This document shows positions 1,985-28,079 of a stretch of 64,000 bases of DNA, in pieces. The position numbers and the translations under genes were made by a program. Below the pieces are notes generated by a model. That model was not told where the DNA came from. It saw only the letters and a list, made by a program, of their open reading frames with translations, and searched no databases. Within the stretch, counting starts at the first letter, position 1, and each line of letters starts with the position of its first letter. Source of the stretch: a virus (Duplodnaviria; Caudoviricetes); the IMG/VR virus record IMGVR_UViG_3300028364_000013. One strand, written 5' to 3'.

Positions 1985-2940
1985 TGGTTTTAAAAGCCTG
2001 AGTTTACAGCATTTATTAGCGTCCTTTAATGACCTTACCCACATCATCTTGCGGTTAATCAATGTATCCACGCACCCTTTCAGGTGGTATACGCCAGTCT
2101 CGATACCTATGGGGTATCATTCCTATCGTGCAATCTAACTCTGTATTTTCCACCTACACTATCTTGCCAGACATATGCGAGCTTTCGTTACAATCGACAC
2201 CCACCTTGCGAGGATGAATGACTCCCTGATTCTGCCGAAGCATCCAGGGTCTGAGAGACCTTTTAATATACACGCCCATGAGACTTTCACTTTTTTTCTG
2301 TTTATAGTAAAAACCAGCCATGCCAAGGCTAATATATACTGCATGAGATATACAGTACGAAGAGACGTGCCCACAGGAGTGGTTTCATAACTTTTTGGTT
2401 ACAAAATGCCACACGCCTCTCTGTTAGTCTATGCTGACCAACAATTAAACCCGAATTACTTTCTACGAATAGTTAAGTAACCAAATCCAAATGAGATGAA
2501 GCCCTTGCGTTTCTTACACGCTCGAACAACACAACTAAGCTTTTCCTTTTCATCAGCCGAAGCCAACTTTTTTTGCAAAATTTCTAATGCTCAACTACCA
2601 TTTTTAATCTCATGATAGTTTACCTTGTCCAGGTAAGTACTCACTTATTGCATAGGTGTCCAACAGAATAAATTCTGAAGGCGAGGGTGACACCCCCTTT
2701 TATAGCTTGTTACCAAACTTTATCTTCCCACAAGGGGCTTGCAATGATTTTCATCACCACGAGACTCTACACAGCCTCAAAATGATTGTTATTTGAATTG
2801 TAAAAGCTGGTTCATGTTACATAACCAATTTAAAAGCGAAGGACTCTGCTATATTTCATACAGTTGAATGTTTGTCCCATTCTCACTTTCCTCACTTACT
2901 CTTACTGTCGAATGGACCTAAACATTTAGACCAATAACAA
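1985..2940 (-). ncRNA. Large structured ncRNA of about 950 nt, GOLLD-like
   Basis: No credible ORF, GC higher than flanks, many short hairpins with GNRA/UUCG loops, own promoter and terminator. 3' part (AGTGTAGG...AGACTGGC...GTGGA...CTCAGGCTTTT) recalls GOLLD 3' domains from memory. Confidence 0.6.
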
Positions 2941-3690: not shown

Positions 3691-3742
3691 AACCTATCTG
3701 TTTAAAGATAAATAGTACAAAAAAGTACAAAATCGACTAAGG

Positions 3743-3813
3743 GAATCCATACGGGATTCGAACCCGTGCCTCCTGCCGAAAGGCAAGCGCTCTATCCGCT
3801 GAGCTAATGGACA
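3743..3813 (-). ncRNA. tRNA-like RNA whose anticodon loop is a 4-6 nt loop
   Basis: Normal D arm (GCTC..GAGC) and T arm (ACGGG-TTCGAAT-CCCGT); anticodon arm CTTGCC-TTTC-GGCAGG. Confidence 0.6.
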
Positions 3814-5999: not shown

Positions 6000-7511
6000 A
6001 TGGACAATATTGAACTTGAAAATGAAATAGAACTAAGGATGAATCCTCACGACTTTTCCTTATCTACAGGGGGCTTAATAGATATAATGAATGAATACGA
6101 TTTATCTGAGCATGATGTAGCCTTTGTTTATAGTAAAATAGTAGAAAGAAAAAGAGAAGAACTTGTAGATACCTCAAAAGATGTTATCAAATATTTTAGA
6201 GATAAAGGAAATCACTACCCTTCATTTAATGAGTTCAAAACAGTTTTTAAACAATACGGTCCTACTTTTGTAGACGACAAAATTCTAAGAGATATGCACA
6301 GGAGAGAAACACGAGATTCAAACCAAATTTCAATGTTTGAAATCAGAAAAATGATTAGAGAAGGGCTTGGTTCTATGTGGAGCGAGTTTGACCCAGAAGA
6401 ATTTGAAGGTGATGCAAAAAAAGCTGCAATGCAAGACATTGGAGACGAATTTGAAGAGCTTGGCACTACTAAGTACGAAAAAGGTATGGACAAAGATGAG
6501 TTCATAGGAAACCTTGACAGAGTTAAGTTAAATTTACCAAGCGATGAAGAAGAGTTCGAAAGAATCTCCAGCATGATGAAAAAGAAAAAAAGCCATGAGG
6601 ACCTATTTGGAGCAGGTACATTGAATGAGGAAGGGATTGGTCAACAAGGTTTATTTAAACCACAAGACTCTCAAGGAAATGACATAAACCTTAAAGCTCT
6701 TGTCACAAACTTGGAAGGGACAAAGAAAGGTCGTGTGCTTGGATTTGGAGATGATGGACAAGGAAACCAAACTATAAGAGTAAGCTGGGCATGGCCTATG
6801 GATATGAAATTCACAGCACCAGAAGAAATGGGAGACAAAGTAGAAATGGCAGCCGACCTTATTGTTCAAGGAATGAACGAGAACAATGGAGAAGCTGGAA
6901 GAAACAACTTAAGAGCCGTTGAAGTTACTTATGTTGACGGCACAGTTATACCAACATCAATGGCTGCTCATCTATCAGACGAAGACATTAAAGCCTATTT
7001 TGAACCAGGTAAACTATTTAACATCGGAAGTGTTGAAGATAATATGCAAGCAGTACAATCAATAAATATAATAAGAGAAGATATGGACAACTTAAATGAA
7101 AATGAAGAAGTGGTTATGGCCACTGGAATGCTAAACAAAGCGCTTATGGACTTTCACAACGCAGGAGGAAGCAAAGAGTCTGCACAACAACAGCTTGATT
7201 CTGTTTTTGTTGGCTCAGACAGCGAATGGTCTACTCATGTAGATGCTATGAAATCAAAATACCCCGACATGTACCAAGATGGTATTGAGGAAGCGAGAGG
7301 TCTTGGTCATGGAGTTAAAAATTCAGGAGATAGAAATGTTAAAAGAAGTAATGATAATTCTCACGCTCCAGTAACAACTCTTCCAGAAGGTAGAACTCTT
7401 GATTCTAAAATCAAAACTTTATCAGAAAGCGCTCCTACAAAGAAGGACCTTTTAAACTTCATTAGCGAACAAGCAACAAAGCTTGCTAAAGATATTAGAG
7501 AAGGTAAATAA
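6000..7511 (+). CDS. Acidic late (probable virion head/internal) protein
   Basis: TATTTATA motif at 5977-5984 places the start at ATG 6000; repeated L/I/M-x-E motifs (LNE, MNE, IRE, LSE). Confidence 0.65.
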   Translation: MDNIELENEIELRMNPHDFSLSTGGLIDIMNEYDLSEHDVAFVYSKIVERKREELVDTSKDVIKYFRDKGNHYPSFNEFKTVFKQYGPTFVDDKILRDMHRRETRDSNQISMFEIRKMIREGLGSMWSEFDPEEFEGDAKKAAMQDIGDEFEELGTTKYEKGMDKDEFIGNLDRVKLNLPSDEEEFERISSMMKKKKSHEDLFGAGTLNEEGIGQQGLFKPQDSQGNDINLKALVTNLEGTKKGRVLGFGDDGQGNQTIRVSWAWPMDMKFTAPEEMGDKVEMAADLIVQGMNENNGEAGRNNLRAVEVTYVDGTVIPTSMAAHLSDEDIKAYFEPGKLFNIGSVEDNMQAVQSINIIREDMDNLNENEEVVMATGMLNKALMDFHNAGGSKESAQQQLDSVFVGSDSEWSTHVDAMKSKYPDMYQDGIEEARGLGHGVKNSGDRNVKRSNDNSHAPVTTLPEGRTLDSKIKTLSESAPTKKDLLNFISEQATKLAKDIREGK

Positions 7512-12152: not shown

Positions 12153-12415
12153 AAAAAAAGCTCGGTCCTTTTTGGAACCGAGCTTTAAACTATTCGTTTA
12201 GATATTATATTATCAAACTTTAAGTTTATGCAAAACGATTCCGTCCCTGCTGCAATCATCTGCCGCTGGCGCCCCCATATAGCCCATCGGGTTAATTGAA
12301 GTGTTCTCGTTATATGTATAAACTTTTTCCATTTGAATTTGTTTCTCTTTTTTCTAAATAGCAGAAAATTTCTTTTTCCGCTTTCTTCTACGCAAATATA
12401 TAACATTTGTTCTAT
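12153..12415 (-). promoter_or_regulatory. Promoter, 39-aa leader ORF (12332-12213) and terminator (12153-12186): putative attenuator of the Pro/Asp/Ala/Tyr/Gly/Met tRNA cluster
   Basis: TATATTTG promoter at about 12392-12399; leader MEKVYTYNENTSINPMGYMGAPAADDCSRDGIVLHKLKV; hairpin AAAGCTCGGTTCC-AAAAA-GGACCGAGCTTT plus U tract. Confidence 0.7.
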
Positions 12416-24409: not shown

Positions 24410-25114
24410 TTAAGATTCTTTGATTTTATTAATTAAAATAATTAAATCTTCATCAGAATGTCTATTTTTCATATAGTTAACACCCAAAACAACCCATCTA
24501 ACATTGTTTTTTATATAGCCTAATTTGTTATCAACCCTATCTAAAGAAGCTGTTTCATAAATCTTAGTATCACTTTCTCTATTAGGCAATTTAATAGATA
24601 TACCTGTAATTCCACACAACCCATTCTGCTCATCAAATAGTACTTCTAAATATTTACTATCCAAATCACACTCATAACCTTTTTTCTTAGACCTTTGAAT
24701 TACTCCTTGTAAATAACAAGAAAAAGGATTGAAGGCTAGGGCGCCAAAACACTTACTTGAACAGGTGTTTTTATCTTTAATGTCTTTTTTGCTTTTAAAG
24801 TATTCTTTACCACAAATATAACATGATACAGGATGTATTCTATTAGATTTAATGTGATTAATAGTAATGTTTGGATAAATATTCTTTAAAGATTCGTATT
24901 TGTTTAAATGACTTTTATTTATAGTATCACTATTTCTATACTCACCAACCTGCTTTAGCACTTTAAGTTTGTTTTCTAAATAATGCTTGTGCCTATATTT
25001 TTTATGACAAGACTTGCAAATTGACGATAAGCCGCTTTTCTTGCTTTTGTTTTTAGAAAAATCATCTATAGTTCTTTTAACATTACATTTTGGACATTTC
25101 TTTATTTTACACAT
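24410..25114 (-). CDS. HNH-like homing endonuclease
   Basis: CGITG...ASLDRVDNKLGYIKNNVRWV...VNYMK. Confidence 0.8.
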   Translation of the reverse strand: MCKIKKCPKCNVKRTIDDFSKNKSKKSGLSSICKSCHKKYRHKHYLENKLKVLKQVGEYRNSDTINKSHLNKYESLKNIYPNITINHIKSNRIHPVSCYICGKEYFKSKKDIKDKNTCSSKCFGALAFNPFSCYLQGVIQRSKKKGYECDLDSKYLEVLFDEQNGLCGITGISIKLPNRESDTKIYETASLDRVDNKLGYIKNNVRWVVLGVNYMKNRHSDEDLIILINKIKES

Positions 25115-25199
25115 ATCTATATTTTATAATAAATAGTGTTAAAATTTAAAAAGCCTCCAAACACGCTATGTGTTGATATAACGTGTTTGGAGGCTTTTG

Positions 25200-25277
25200 C
25201 GCAGATGTCAGGATTCGAACCCGAACAGAATTAACACGGGGTTGGAATCCGCTTAGCTCACCAATGCATGCACCTGC
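25200..25277 (-). tRNA. tRNA-Trp (CCA), atypical D arm
   Basis: GCGGA-TTCCAAC-CCCGT; G73. Confidence 0.65.
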
Positions 25278-25309
25278 GTATATTTTGTGACCGAGGGAGG
25301 ACTCAAACA

Positions 25310-25807
25310 TTAATCAATTATCCCTCCATGTATTTCTCTATGACAATTTGAACATACTAAAATGCATTTATCTAATTCTTTTTTTACAGAATCAGTTAAT
25401 TTTAAAAGTTTAATTCCACCCAGTTGAAAATCTTTTTCTTTCGGGTCGAGATGATGAAATTCCAATGCTCCACAATATTTATCATATCCGCACTTTTCAC
25501 AACACCCTCCTTTATATTTAACTGCAATAATTTTAAACCCCCTTTGCCTTTCAACTGTTTGCTCGTTAGTACAAGGCTTGCAATATGATGATGCTCCAGC
25601 CTTTCCTTTTCTTTGATAAAATTCTACCAACTTCTTTTCTTTGCTACATCTCGGACACACTCTTTCTGTTTTTTCTCTGCTCTTACTTTTTAATTCATAC
25701 TTCTTAAGCCAATACCTAATTGTAGTCTGACTTAAATTAAATTCATAACCCATTTGTCTTGTGGTCATTTTTTTATCAACCGACTTTTTTAACAACTCTT
25801 TTTCCAT
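25310..25807 (-). CDS. HNH endonuclease with N-terminal HTH
   Basis: CEKCGY...ALEFHHLDP...CILVCSNCHREIH. Confidence 0.85.
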   Translation of the reverse strand: MEKELLKKSVDKKMTTRQMGYEFNLSQTTIRYWLKKYELKSKSREKTERVCPRCSKEKKLVEFYQRKGKAGASSYCKPCTNEQTVERQRGFKIIAVKYKGGCCEKCGYDKYCGALEFHHLDPKEKDFQLGGIKLLKLTDSVKKELDKCILVCSNCHREIHGGIID

Positions 25808-25857
25808 ACTAATAAATATGAAAAAAAAATATTATTTCATTTTGAGCTATAACTCTG

Positions 25858-25931
25858 AGGCCTTAGCGAGATTCGAACTCGCAACCTTTTGTTTAGGAAA
25901 CAAAAACTCTGTCCAGTTGAGCTACAAGGCC
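25858..25931 (-). tRNA. tRNA-Arg (CCT)
   Basis: TTTGT-TTCCTAA-ACAAA. Confidence 0.85.
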
Positions 25932-26020
25932 AAGTGATGCAAGCAAGCCAGGTTCTGCTCCTGGTTCCGCCTAAGCGGTATGCTCTGATGAACGTTCTTT
26001 TACAACATTACTCACATCTT

Positions 26021-26103
26021 TGGTACACCAGGCGGGATTCCAACCCACATTTTCAGCTGCAATTACGGATAGCAATTTAGAAAAATGCCTCGGCTACTGG
26101 TGC
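26021..26103 (-). ncRNA. Degenerate tRNA-like RNA lacking a D loop, CCA encoded
   Basis: GCACCAG/CTGGTGT-ACCA; T arm GTGGG-TTGGAAT-CCCGC. Confidence 0.4.
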
Positions 26104-26125
26104 TTATTTTTATAACTTTATTTTT

Positions 26126-26699
26126 CTAAATATCTTTTTTTCTTGCAGAATTTTTATTCTTTGATTTATATGTATCTAACTGTGAATCGCAATTAGGACA
26201 AATTAATCGTAAATTATTTCTTAAATTATTACCAGCATCTCCATCTATATGGTCTAAAATAAAAACAATTTCCTTATCATTCCAAGTATTGGAATTATTA
26301 CATATATCACATCTATTTTCTTGTTCTTTTAATATGTGAGATTTAATAAAATGCATATTTCTAACATAACAAAAATCACTTTGATTATTTAAGTAATTTT
26401 CATAAAATTTATTCTTTTTATATTTTTTTTCACATATTTTACCACAAAACTTTTGATTATAATGAGTTGTTAATTTAAACTCTTCATTACAATTAAGACA
26501 GTTTACCTCTTTTTTTATTCCTTTATTATGTGGCACATGCTCAGAATTAAACTTCTTTCTTTTTCTCTAACACAATACCTAATTTAATAGCATTTCTCCT
26601 TATTGTTGTATCAGAAACTTTATATTTTTTAGCCACTTCAGTATAAGATAATTTTTCAACTATAATTAACTGATATAATTCTTCTTTATTGTATTTCAT
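26126..26699 (-). pseudogene. HTH plus HNH endonuclease with a frameshift at an A run (about 26560)
   Basis: LDHIDGD..NN...NLRLICPNC; N-terminal MKYNKEEL... in another frame. Confidence 0.7.
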
Positions 26700-26796
26700 A
26701 TTATAATTTTATTATAAATATAAATATTTTTAACAAACCGATTACTAATGATAAATTGTTTTACACCTATGCATAATCGACTTGCAAACATATATG

Positions 26797-26870
26797 TGAC
26801 TCCGATAGGATTCGAACCTATAACCGTCAGGGTAGAAACCTGATGCGCTATCCAGTTGCGCCACGGAGCC
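26797..26870 (-). tRNA. tRNA-Arg (TCT)
   Basis: TCAGG-TTTCTAC-CCTGA. Confidence 0.9.
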
Positions 26871-26876
26871 ATTTTG

Positions 26877-26963
26877 CGGAAGTAATGGGGCTCGAACCCA
26901 TGCACCCCTTGCGGGGCCTAATAACTTTCCAAGCTATCCTCTTTACCATTTGAGTATACTTCC
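26877..26963 (-). tRNA. tRNA-Ser (GGA)
   Basis: Loop TTGGAAA, long variable arm, G73. Confidence 0.9.
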
Positions 26964-26970
26964 ATTAATA

Positions 26971-27062
26971 TGGCGGAGAGAGAGAGATTCGAACTCTCGA
27001 TACCAGTTTCCCAGTATAACACCTTAGCAGGGTGCCGCCTTCAACCACTCGGCCACCTCTCC
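26971..27062 (-). tRNA. tRNA-Ser (GCT), CCA encoded
   Basis: CACCC-TGCTAAG region, long variable arm. Confidence 0.9.
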
Positions 27063-27071
27063 GTATTTTTG

Positions 27072-27144
27072 TGGATTCAGCAGGATTTGAACCTGCAACC
27101 AACCCCTTTGCAAGAGCCGCTCTATCCAGTTGAGCTATGAATCC
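27072..27144 (-). tRNA. tRNA of uncertain identity (GCA in a weak anticodon arm)
   Basis: Good acceptor, D and T arms; anticodon stem poorly paired. Confidence 0.5.
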
Positions 27145-27166
27145 AAGGGAACCATGTCTTCCCTCT

Positions 27167-27254
27167 TGGCGGTAGATATGGGGTTCGAACCCATGTTCCC
27201 TTTCGGGGCTACCTGTTTAGCAAACAGGCCTCTTTACCATTTGAGTAACCTACC
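27167..27254 (-). tRNA. tRNA-Ser (GCT), CCA encoded
   Basis: CCTGT-TTGCTAA-ACAGG. Confidence 0.9.
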
Positions 27255-27257
27255 AGT

Positions 27258-27343
27258 TGCACGGGGGTGAGGATTCGAACCTCACTCATCTTAAGGGAGC
27301 GACCCCTCAGATTTCCAGTGTAGCTACACTTCAAACCCCGTGT
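27258..27343 (-). ncRNA. tRNA-like RNA with non-canonical middle
   Basis: CACGGG/CCCGTG acceptor, GTGAGG-TTCGAAT-CCTCAC T arm, no recognisable anticodon loop. Confidence 0.45.
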
Positions 27344-27349
27344 ATATTG

Positions 27350-27438
27350 CGGAGGCGGCAGGATTCGAACCTGCGGACCCCTTTCAGGGCCACTGCTTTT
27401 CAAGAGCAGCGCAATAAACCAGACTCTGCCACGCCTCC
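27350..27438 (-). tRNA. tRNA-Ser (TGA)
   Basis: CTGCT-CTTGAAA-AGCAG. Confidence 0.9.
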
Positions 27439-27443
27439 GTATT

Positions 27444-27611
27444 TCAATTTTCTTCTTTATAACGTTTTATAAAGAACTCTCTTAATTCTTCCTTCCTTTT
27501 AATTGATGCCTTGATTCTCGCCACCTTTTCTGGAGAAGGGTCTGTATCAACTGTAAATTTGATTCCATTTTTCTCACAATAATCTGTCATTTCTTCAAAA
27601 CAATTTTCCAT
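27444..27611 (-). CDS. Small hypothetical protein inside the tRNA cluster
   Basis: MENCFEEM... Confidence 0.45.
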   Translation of the reverse strand: MENCFEEMTDYCEKNGIKFTVDTDPSPEKVARIKASIKRKEELREFFIKRYKEEN

Positions 27612-27625
27612 CTTTCTATTTTTTG

Positions 27626-27713
27626 CGGAGGGAGAGGGGGTCAAACCCTCAAGGCCGTTAAGCTCGCTGGGGTTCAAAACCAGTGCAGTCGTCTACTTTC
27701 TGCTTGCCCCTCC
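27626..27713 (-). tRNA. tRNA-Ser (TGA)
   Basis: CTGGT-TTTGAAC-CCCAG, long variable arm, G73. Confidence 0.8.
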
Positions 27714-27726
27714 GTATTTTTTGGCA

Positions 27727-27877
27727 CAAAAAAAACCCTAATTCAAAAAGAACCAGGGTTTCAAATATTTTTATAACAGTATCGTTACATAACATTTTGA
27801 CATACCAGTGTTCTTTCCGTAGCTCTATTCGAACTCGAACTCCATCTGGACCATCTATTTGTTATTACTGTTTTCAT
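27727..27877 (-). promoter_or_regulatory. 30-aa leader ORF (27877-27785) and terminator (27727-27762): putative attenuator of the Ser/Arg/Trp tRNA cluster
   Basis: MKTVITNRWSRWSSSSNRATERTLVCQNVM; hairpin AAACCCTGGTTC-TTTTT-GAATTAGGGTTT plus U tract; TAGATTTG promoter at about 28040-28047. Confidence 0.7.
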
Positions 27878-28079
27878 CTTATTTCTAAATATAGGAAAAA
27901 AAGTTTATTTCTTCTTTCCTCGTGTTTTATTTTTATTATCGTCTTTACCTTTTTCTTTTTTAAGTTGTTTCATCCAACCTTCTAAGGCTTCTAAATTTGC
28001 GTGTGTGCTATTTACTGACATCTAATTGTTTTCTTCTACGCAAATCTATAACAAATGTTTCAATAAATCAAATCTTTTT

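Follow-up and report, generated by a model that had tools for sequence, protein, structure and literature searches.

We find that a tRNA cluster on a phage contig is likely to be gated by a ribosome-mediated transcription attenuator, a leader-peptide switch that lies ahead of genes for Ser, Arg, Trp and perhaps Cys tRNAs. The DNA that we analyzed, referred to below as the window, is a 64-kb stretch within a 117-kb source contig of 34% G+C; the unit described here lies on the minus strand, as does every tRNA of the 117-kb contig. The preliminary description of this DNA had proposed such an attenuator, and at the level of sequence that interpretation is supported by an open reading frame (ORF), cognate codons, a terminator, a covarying antiterminator, and an anti-antiterminator. 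The arrangement suggests that the Ser, Arg, and Trp tRNAs are probably made only while ribosomes decode the corresponding codons slowly.

The leader ORF, MKTVITNRWSRWSSSSNRATERTLVCQNVM, comprises 30 codons plus TAA (27785..27877) and starts 160 nt downstream of the promoter; its ATG and its stop codon are kept in 14 distinct relatives. Codons 8-18 (27824..27856) read AGA TGG TCC AGA TGG AGT TCG AGT TCG (AAT) AGA and would serve as the zone in which ribosomes stall. The 30-residue leader and the core codons had been reported correctly in the preliminary description, with codons 8-18 falling exactly in the ORF at 27877-27785 on the minus strand.

Over its two strands, the 117-kb contig contains 594 ORFs that start with ATG and span 20-60 codons; we scored each of them, separately for each tRNA block, by the codons that the anticodons of that block can read. 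The leader described here (leader C) ranks first of the 594 small ORFs for the codon set of its own cluster, with 10 of 12 codons cognate in its best window and a run of 9, while the next-best ORF has a run of 5. Given the phage's own codon usage, the probability of a nine-codon run from this set anywhere in a 30-codon ORF is about 2e-7. The codon match between the leader and its cluster is beyond chance.

The choice of synonymous codons is also distinctive. Of the five Ser codons in the core, three belong to the pair that phage genes use least for Ser, TCG and TCC (2.5 and 1.9 per 1000, respectively). Across the cores of the 14 leaders, all 44 Arg codons are AGA, which is read by the Arg-UCU of the cluster, and the Ser codons are AGT (29), TCG (21), TCC (10), TCA (6), and TCT (1). 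The leader includes one TGT, and a Cys-GCA tRNA is present in the cluster. Two observations count against the attenuator reading: AGG, the codon of Arg-CCU, is missing from the leader, and the N-terminal residues, MKTV.TN, are conserved yet non-cognate. The conservation of these residues could come from the RNA of region 1 (see below) or from a function of the peptide.

The 117-kb contig holds three units of this kind, A, B, and C, with a common promoter and different leaders. Units A and B, located at 6940-7184 of L019 (G000) and at 12153-12406 (-) of the window, have the same promoter and 5' UTR as each other; they are near-identical from the promoter to just 5' of the ATG and wholly diverged beyond that point. 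One of these leaders, MYSLNIHTTINNTICNKKQN..., is rich in N, I, H, T, and K and precedes Asn, His, Thr, Lys, and Ile tRNAs, and the other, ...NPMGYMGAPAADD..., is rich in P, M, G, Y, A, and D and precedes Pro, Asp, Ala, Tyr, Gly, and Met tRNAs. Leaders A and B each rank first among the 594 small ORFs for their own tRNA block, and the leader of unit A contains a 9-bp near-copy of its own terminator 3' arm. An independent repeat of the same architecture had earlier been put forward as the strongest argument that the codon match is not due to chance. That argument holds up: there are three units with one promoter and unrelated leaders, and each leader is top for its own tRNA set.

Related loci were found through an FtsH-like protein encoded 2 kb upstream (29884-31995), which has hundreds of homologs on large metagenomic contigs. 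Six syntenic loci were taken via this protein (58-72% protein identity) and one metagenome pattern scan added further loci; together with this window they make up 14 distinct versions, which form alignment A2. In the viral contig collection, a search with the FtsH-like protein found no related loci, the leader pattern gave 0 matches, and the promoter 16-mer gave 18 matches, all in coincidental coding sequence and none in a relative. The contigs of the relatives are syntenic with ours where the flanking DNA suffices. All 14 versions have the promoter, an upstream ORF of 34-43 aa, a leader of the form MKTV.TNRWS(S)RWSS..., and the terminator, and the 13 versions with enough downstream DNA have Ser tRNAs, with Arg and Trp tRNAs as well where the sequence reaches far enough. 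Where sequence suffices, the tRNAs downstream in the relatives are Ser-UGA, Ser-GCU, Ser-GGA, Arg-UCU, Arg-CCU, and Trp-CCA.

The two halves of the leader differ in how they vary. Within the Ser/Arg/Trp core, every insertion or deletion spans 3, 6, or 9 nt. Single-nucleotide indels occur in the distal leader, where the nucleotides CGGAAGGA.CATTGGTATGTCA are conserved but fall in another reading frame in L032 and L040 than in the window. In-frame indels in the core together with a change of frame over conserved distal nucleotides argue that the core is selected as codons and the distal leader as RNA.

The upstream parts of five relatives (L020, L021, L026, L028, L030) encode, close to the tRNA blocks, a Ro60/TROVE-like protein, AAA+ proteins of the ClpB-like and FtsH-like types, an RNA ligase, and a PTH2-like peptidyl-tRNA hydrolase. 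The surroundings of the tRNA blocks in the relatives are a neighborhood of RNA repair and translation maintenance.

The RNA between the leader start and the first tRNA can be divided into four regions. The intrinsic terminator (27762-27728) has a stem of 12-13 bp, a 5-nt loop, and 8 U; region 3 (27745..27761) consists of its 5' arm (27761-27750) and loop (27749-27745), and region 4 (27728..27744) contains its 3' arm (27744-27733) and the 8-U run (27735-27728). Region 1, the anti-antiterminator strand, corresponds to codons 5-10 (27848..27865), holds AGA TGG TCC, and is predicted to pair with region 2. Region 2 corresponds to codons 21-27 (27797..27816) and is predicted to pair either with region 1 or with the 5' arm and loop of the terminator.

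We found that each of these pairings is better conserved in A2 than the same pairing slid out of register. In the terminator helix 3:4 (27761-27750 with 27744-27733), 96% of cells are paired, compared with 17-67% in slid controls; its covariation score is 0.237, with compensatory changes, and the isolated hairpin has a folding energy of -16.2 kcal/mol. The antiterminator helix 2:3 comprises 27816-27810 with 27753-27747 plus 27806-27802 with 27761-27757, which together tie up 10 of the 12 nt of the terminator 5' arm. Here, 81.5% of cells are paired (slid controls, 36-64%), the covariation score of 0.238 equals that of the terminator, and four pairs are changed on both sides; four of the five observed measures are reached by 3 to 24 of 500 shuffles. 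The complementarity noted earlier between AAAGAAC (27816-27810) and GTTCTTT (27753-27747) is perfect, and the antiterminator is larger than the 7 bp then described. Region 2 copies the 3' arm of the terminator imperfectly; of the 13 relatives that can be aligned at the most variable position, 12 have the same base in region 2 as in region 4.

The anti-antiterminator helix 1:2 (27865-27848 with 27814-27797) is an addition to the preliminary description and pairs the regulatory codons with region 2. In this helix 86% of cells are paired (slid controls, 27-48%), it is present in the minimum free energy (MFE) structure of 14 of 14 sequences, and one pair changes from U-A to A-U between clades. These counts support a model in which helices 1:2, 2:3, and 3:4 are conserved and mutually exclusive; the covariation comes from 14 related sequences and from structures derived from those same sequences, such that it is supportive rather than proof. 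RNAalifold returned the terminator only when given the full A2, and helix 2:3 weakly, at -1.0 kcal/mol, when A2 was cut before the terminator 3' arm; we therefore assessed the alternative helices by counting pairs explicitly.

The predicted energetics favor termination. The leader-terminator RNA folds with -44.2 kcal/mol (z = -5.2 compared with shuffles), and for the free RNA the terminator state (1:2 + 3:4) is favored over the antiterminator state by 11.5 kcal/mol. Masking 30 nt about the A site of a ribosome at codon 9 or 14 narrows this gap to about 6-7 kcal/mol. In a nascent transcript that lacks region 4, region 3 is predicted to pair with region 2 unless codons 18-30 are occupied by a ribosome. 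Once at the stop codon, a ribosome would cover only the 3' part of region 2 here, and all of region 2 in L032. The antiterminator in the window is short and A/U-rich (7 bp + 3-4 bp) and is thermodynamically weaker than the terminator; the model therefore depends on kinetics. To our knowledge, the outcome is timing-dependent in every known attenuator.

Just 5' of the terminator stem lies GATATTTGAAA (27738-27767 (-); A2 columns 152-165), which is near-invariant in the relatives. Its similarity to the ATATTTAGAAA motif that precedes the leader ATG is that of a direct repeat rather than a complement.

Ahead of the leader lies a Bacteroidetes-type promoter (28041..28072), with a -33 element TTTG (28072-28069), a 20-nt spacer, and the -7 element TAGATTTG (28048-28041); transcription probably starts within the conserved GCGTAGAAGAAA just after the -7 element. 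This promoter is kept in 14 of 14 versions of the unit. Its 25-nt core occurs three times in the 117-kb contig, each time ahead of one of the tRNA units A, B, and C, and nowhere else. More generally, the pattern TTTG-N18-22-TAnnTTTG is found 17 times in the window, where 4.3 are expected, and no shuffle reached 17. A Shine-Dalgarno-like core precedes only 7 of 78 long ORFs, and the start regions are A-rich. The enrichment of this promoter pattern, together with scarce Shine-Dalgarno-like cores and A-rich start regions, makes a host with Bacteroidetes-type signals the most likely one. A scan for consensus promoters, which phage-specific promoters would escape, found none from the terminator to the end of the tRNA block; by this measure, the tRNAs depend on read-through of the hairpin.

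Other features of the contig bear on its origin. The FtsH-like protein of the window is also recorded on a 364-kb contig, and the genome is therefore probably that of a huge phage. The sequencing runs listed for this DNA are all DNA runs, from lakes and salt lakes, and it originates from lake-water metagenomes. Against GenBank phages, megablast matched no more than 64 nt of a Maribacter phage, a result that is not informative.

Between the promoter and the leader is a conserved small ORF of 38 aa (27905..28021) with the motif ..LEALEGW.KQLK.. and a Lys-rich tail. An ORF of 34-43 aa with the motif MS.NS...N[LI]EAL.GW.KQLK and a Lys-rich tail is found at the same place in 14 of 14 relatives (those named for this position are L020, L023, L026, L028, L030, L032, and L037-L045), and it ends 22-33 nt 5' of the leader ATG. 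The 38-aa ORF has no Pfam match and is missing from the paralogous units A and B; it may encode a micro-protein or deliver ribosomes to the leader. Immediately 5' of the leader ATG is the A/U-rich motif TATATTTAGAAAT (27881..27893), of which TATTTA is invariant in A2, and leaders A and B are preceded by a similar CTATTTAGAAAAAAG. From its position and composition, TATATTTAGAAAT is likely to be a Shine-Dalgarno-independent initiation region.

The tRNA cluster that this leader would regulate (25199..27713) starts 14 nt after the U-run of the terminator. It opens with an odd Ser-UGA (27625-27713) and a 55-aa ORF, followed by a second Ser-UGA (27349-27438), Ser-GCU (27167-27254), Cys-GCA (27071-27144), another Ser-GCU (26971-27062), Ser-GGA (26876-26963), and Arg-UCU (26796-26870). 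After Arg-UCU come two small ORFs, one of them HNH-like, an odd tRNA-like sequence (26021-26103), Arg-CCU (25857-25931), an HNH-like ORF, and a Trp-CCA-like sequence (25199-25277). The second Ser-UGA, both Ser-GCU, Cys-GCA, Ser-GGA, Arg-UCU, and Arg-CCU are canonical. The first Ser-UGA is called by ARAGORN at a relaxed threshold only, has mismatched stems, and has no Rfam tRNA match; the Trp-CCA-like sequence is likewise called at the relaxed setting only and has mismatched stems, with an Rfam score of 24 bits below the cut-off of 29. These two non-canonical tRNAs may be non-functional. The tRNAs listed in the preliminary description, Ser-UGA, two Ser-GCU, Ser-GGA, Arg-UCU, and Arg-CCU, are present as stated, but two more of its entries, the first Ser-UGA and Trp-CCA, are non-canonical, and Cys-GCA had been missed. 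A strong 20-bp terminator (25150..25197) directly after the last, Trp-like tRNA is likely the end of the transcription unit.

Odd tRNAs occur elsewhere on these contigs too. A His-GUG at 6105-6200 of G000 (L019) has a large insertion in its D-arm, a further non-canonical tRNA is listed at 3741-3813 of the window, and other oddities among the phage tRNAs include one call with a 2-nt 'anticodon' and some with apparent short insertions in the anticodon loop. The non-canonical phage tRNAs could have decayed to pseudogenes, or they could be variants that evade nucleases of the host. An amber-suppressor tRNA (anticodon CUA, called 'Pyl' by ARAGORN) is found at 34686-34758 (-) of the window, at 7886-7959 of L020, and at 7538-7611 of L023; it is conserved in relatives, adjoins Ile, Lys, and Thr tRNAs, and may point to some genes in which TAG is read through or recoded.

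The genes between the tRNAs vary among the relatives. Putative homing endonucleases lie among the tRNA genes of the window at 26126-26536, 25310-25807, and 28708-29520 (-); two HNH-like ORFs score under the Pfam cut-off, and the third, immediately upstream of the unit, is clearly a GIY-YIG/NUMOD enzyme. The tRNA-rich part of the genome also includes a full-length GOLLD RNA at 1995-2421 (-) of the window (Rfam RF02032, 169 bits, above the threshold of 150).

These elements suggest the following mechanism. Host RNA polymerase would start at the Bacteroidetes-type promoter and transcribe the small conserved ORF and then the 30-codon leader. If codons 8-18, with their AGA, TGG, TCC, AGT, and TCG, are decoded fast, the ribosome would move into region 2 and on to the stop codon; with region 2 occupied, the 3:4 hairpin and U-run would form and transcription would end 14 nt ahead of the first tRNA. 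If these codons are decoded slowly, as would happen when the matching tRNAs are scarce, uncharged, or cleaved, the ribosome would stay stalled on region 1. Region 2 would then be free to pair with the emerging terminator 5' arm, no terminator would form, and polymerase would enter the tRNA genes. The new tRNAs would speed up decoding and close the switch again, a negative feedback. With no translation at all, 1:2 and 3:4 would form and transcription would terminate. The sequences show the anatomy, the codon match and its recurrence in the paralogous units, the conservation, and the covariation of three helices; that the leader is translated, that ribosomes stall on it, which way read-through responds, and that the loop feeds back are inferred.

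We weighed three other explanations for the unit. The small ORF might encode a functional micro-protein, possibly together with the 38-aa ORF, in which case the terminator would be leaky, the tRNAs would be made by constitutive read-through or from an unrecognized phage promoter, and the codon match would be incidental to what the peptide does. As peptide, MKTV.TN and the core are indeed conserved in 14 relatives, the adjoining 38-aa ORF is a conserved small protein, and a consensus scan would miss phage-specific promoters. We consider this very unlikely, however, given that three paralogous units carry unrelated peptides that are each top for their own downstream tRNA set, that the distal half of the ORF is read in differing frames among relatives while its nucleotides are conserved, and that compensatory changes accompany the conservation of the alternative helices 1:2 and 2:3; nor does any function of a micro-protein explain the use of the rarest Ser codons.

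The codon match and the conservation of the ORF show that decoding is important, not which downstream event it controls, and translation of the leader could act on the tRNA transcript by another route, such as Rho-dependent polarity, stall-triggered cleavage, or the processing or stability of the precursor. Such a route would fit the equilibrium energies, which favor the terminator in every state. But what separates the leader from the first tRNA is precisely a strong, conserved intrinsic terminator, region 2 mimics the 3' arm of this terminator, and a conserved, covarying helix that competes for the terminator 5' arm would be left unexplained; Rho action resulting from stalling would also have the opposite sign. 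We judge control by another route to be unlikely. The leader triplets are also complementary to the anticodons of the cluster tRNAs and the switch helices exist, as would be needed if the triplets bound these anticodons directly and shifted the balance between terminator and antiterminator, in a loosely T-box-like switch independent of ribosomes. Such a switch seems highly improbable: the ATG and stop are conserved and the core indels are all multiples of three, which argues for reading by ribosomes; there is no match to the T-box or any other Rfam riboswitch; 11 tandem specifiers for several tRNAs would be without precedent; and an element that senses the acceptor end is absent. We favor ribosome-mediated attenuation at the intrinsic terminator over each of these alternatives.

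Why phages carry tRNA genes, and how the tRNAs are timed and dosed, is an open question. If attenuation operates as proposed, a leader that reads decoding speed for just those codons which the downstream tRNAs serve would be a simple, testable answer, with each tRNA block made on demand and self-limiting. More tentatively, it is possible that codon-matched leaders together make up a modular homeostat of tRNA supply in huge phages, in which every tRNA block has its own sensor for the decoding speed of exactly those codons that the block serves. Given that stalling would also follow the cleavage or depletion of host tRNAs, these switches could detect the anticodon-nuclease defenses of the host, or the decay of host tRNAs induced by the phage, and supply replacement tRNAs only when and where they are needed. 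We regard this broader role as conceivable rather than likely. Some of the tRNAs that such a homeostat would supply have unusual arms. As compact natural sensors of codon-specific translation speed, leaders of this kind could help to predict, for uncultured hosts, the tRNAs that are limiting or under attack.

The closest parallels are the leader-peptide attenuators of enterobacterial amino-acid operons, including trpL, hisL, pheL, leuL, thrL (Thr and Ile), and ilvL (Ile, Leu, and Val). Like the trp- and his-type leaders, the phage unit has a short leader with a run of regulatory codons, four RNA segments with the mutually exclusive pairings 1:2, 2:3, and 3:4, regulatory codons in region 1, a stop codon just past region 2, and a terminator with a U-run. 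As in thrL and ilvL, several amino acids would be sensed by one leader. The differences are in what is regulated and where. Enterobacterial leaders control biosynthetic enzymes and act on amino-acid supply, whereas the phage unit would regulate tRNA genes, whose products would feed back directly on decoding speed. The phage codons sample several isoacceptors, rarest Ser codons included, and the element belongs to a phage with a probable Bacteroidota host that does without Shine-Dalgarno sequences. Searches with the Rfam leader families (Trp_, His_, Thr_, Leu_, Phe_, rnk_leader, and others) gave no match at the gathering threshold; the sub-threshold matches, rnk_leader in unit C (24.8 bits; cut-off 50) and Leu_leader in unit A (25.5 bits; cut-off 50), are driven by the terminator. 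Judged by its sequence, the phage element appears to work like these leader families and belongs to none of those in Rfam.

T-box riboswitches bind uncharged tRNA without ribosomes, by means of Stem I, a specifier loop, and the T-box sequence. They resemble the phage unit in coupling tRNA status to the choice between terminator and antiterminator ahead of translation-related genes, and differ from it in that the phage unit would sense through an ORF under in-frame constraint. The T-box model (RF00230) has no match in the window at the gathering threshold, nor at E<=1 in 24900-28200.

In our search of the literature we found no description of tRNA genes controlled by leader-peptide attenuation. 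Nor did that search substantiate a leader of this type ahead of the E. coli tRNA genes pheU/pheV. The nearest cellular counterpart by target is pheM, the leader attenuator of the E. coli pheST operon for phenylalanyl-tRNA synthetase. Both pheM and the phage unit place a leader-peptide attenuator over a component of the translation apparatus that is tied to the supply of charged tRNA; pheM, unlike the phage unit, is cellular, controls a synthetase, and senses one amino acid. What is new in the phage system is that tRNA genes are the regulated product, a phage is the owner, and feedback is direct, via decoding. If confirmed, it would extend textbook attenuation to tRNA genes, to viruses, and to Bacteroidota-type hosts lacking Shine-Dalgarno sequences. 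The pattern of leader, codons, and competing helices leads us to think it probable that this unit is trp/his-type attenuation applied to tRNA genes.
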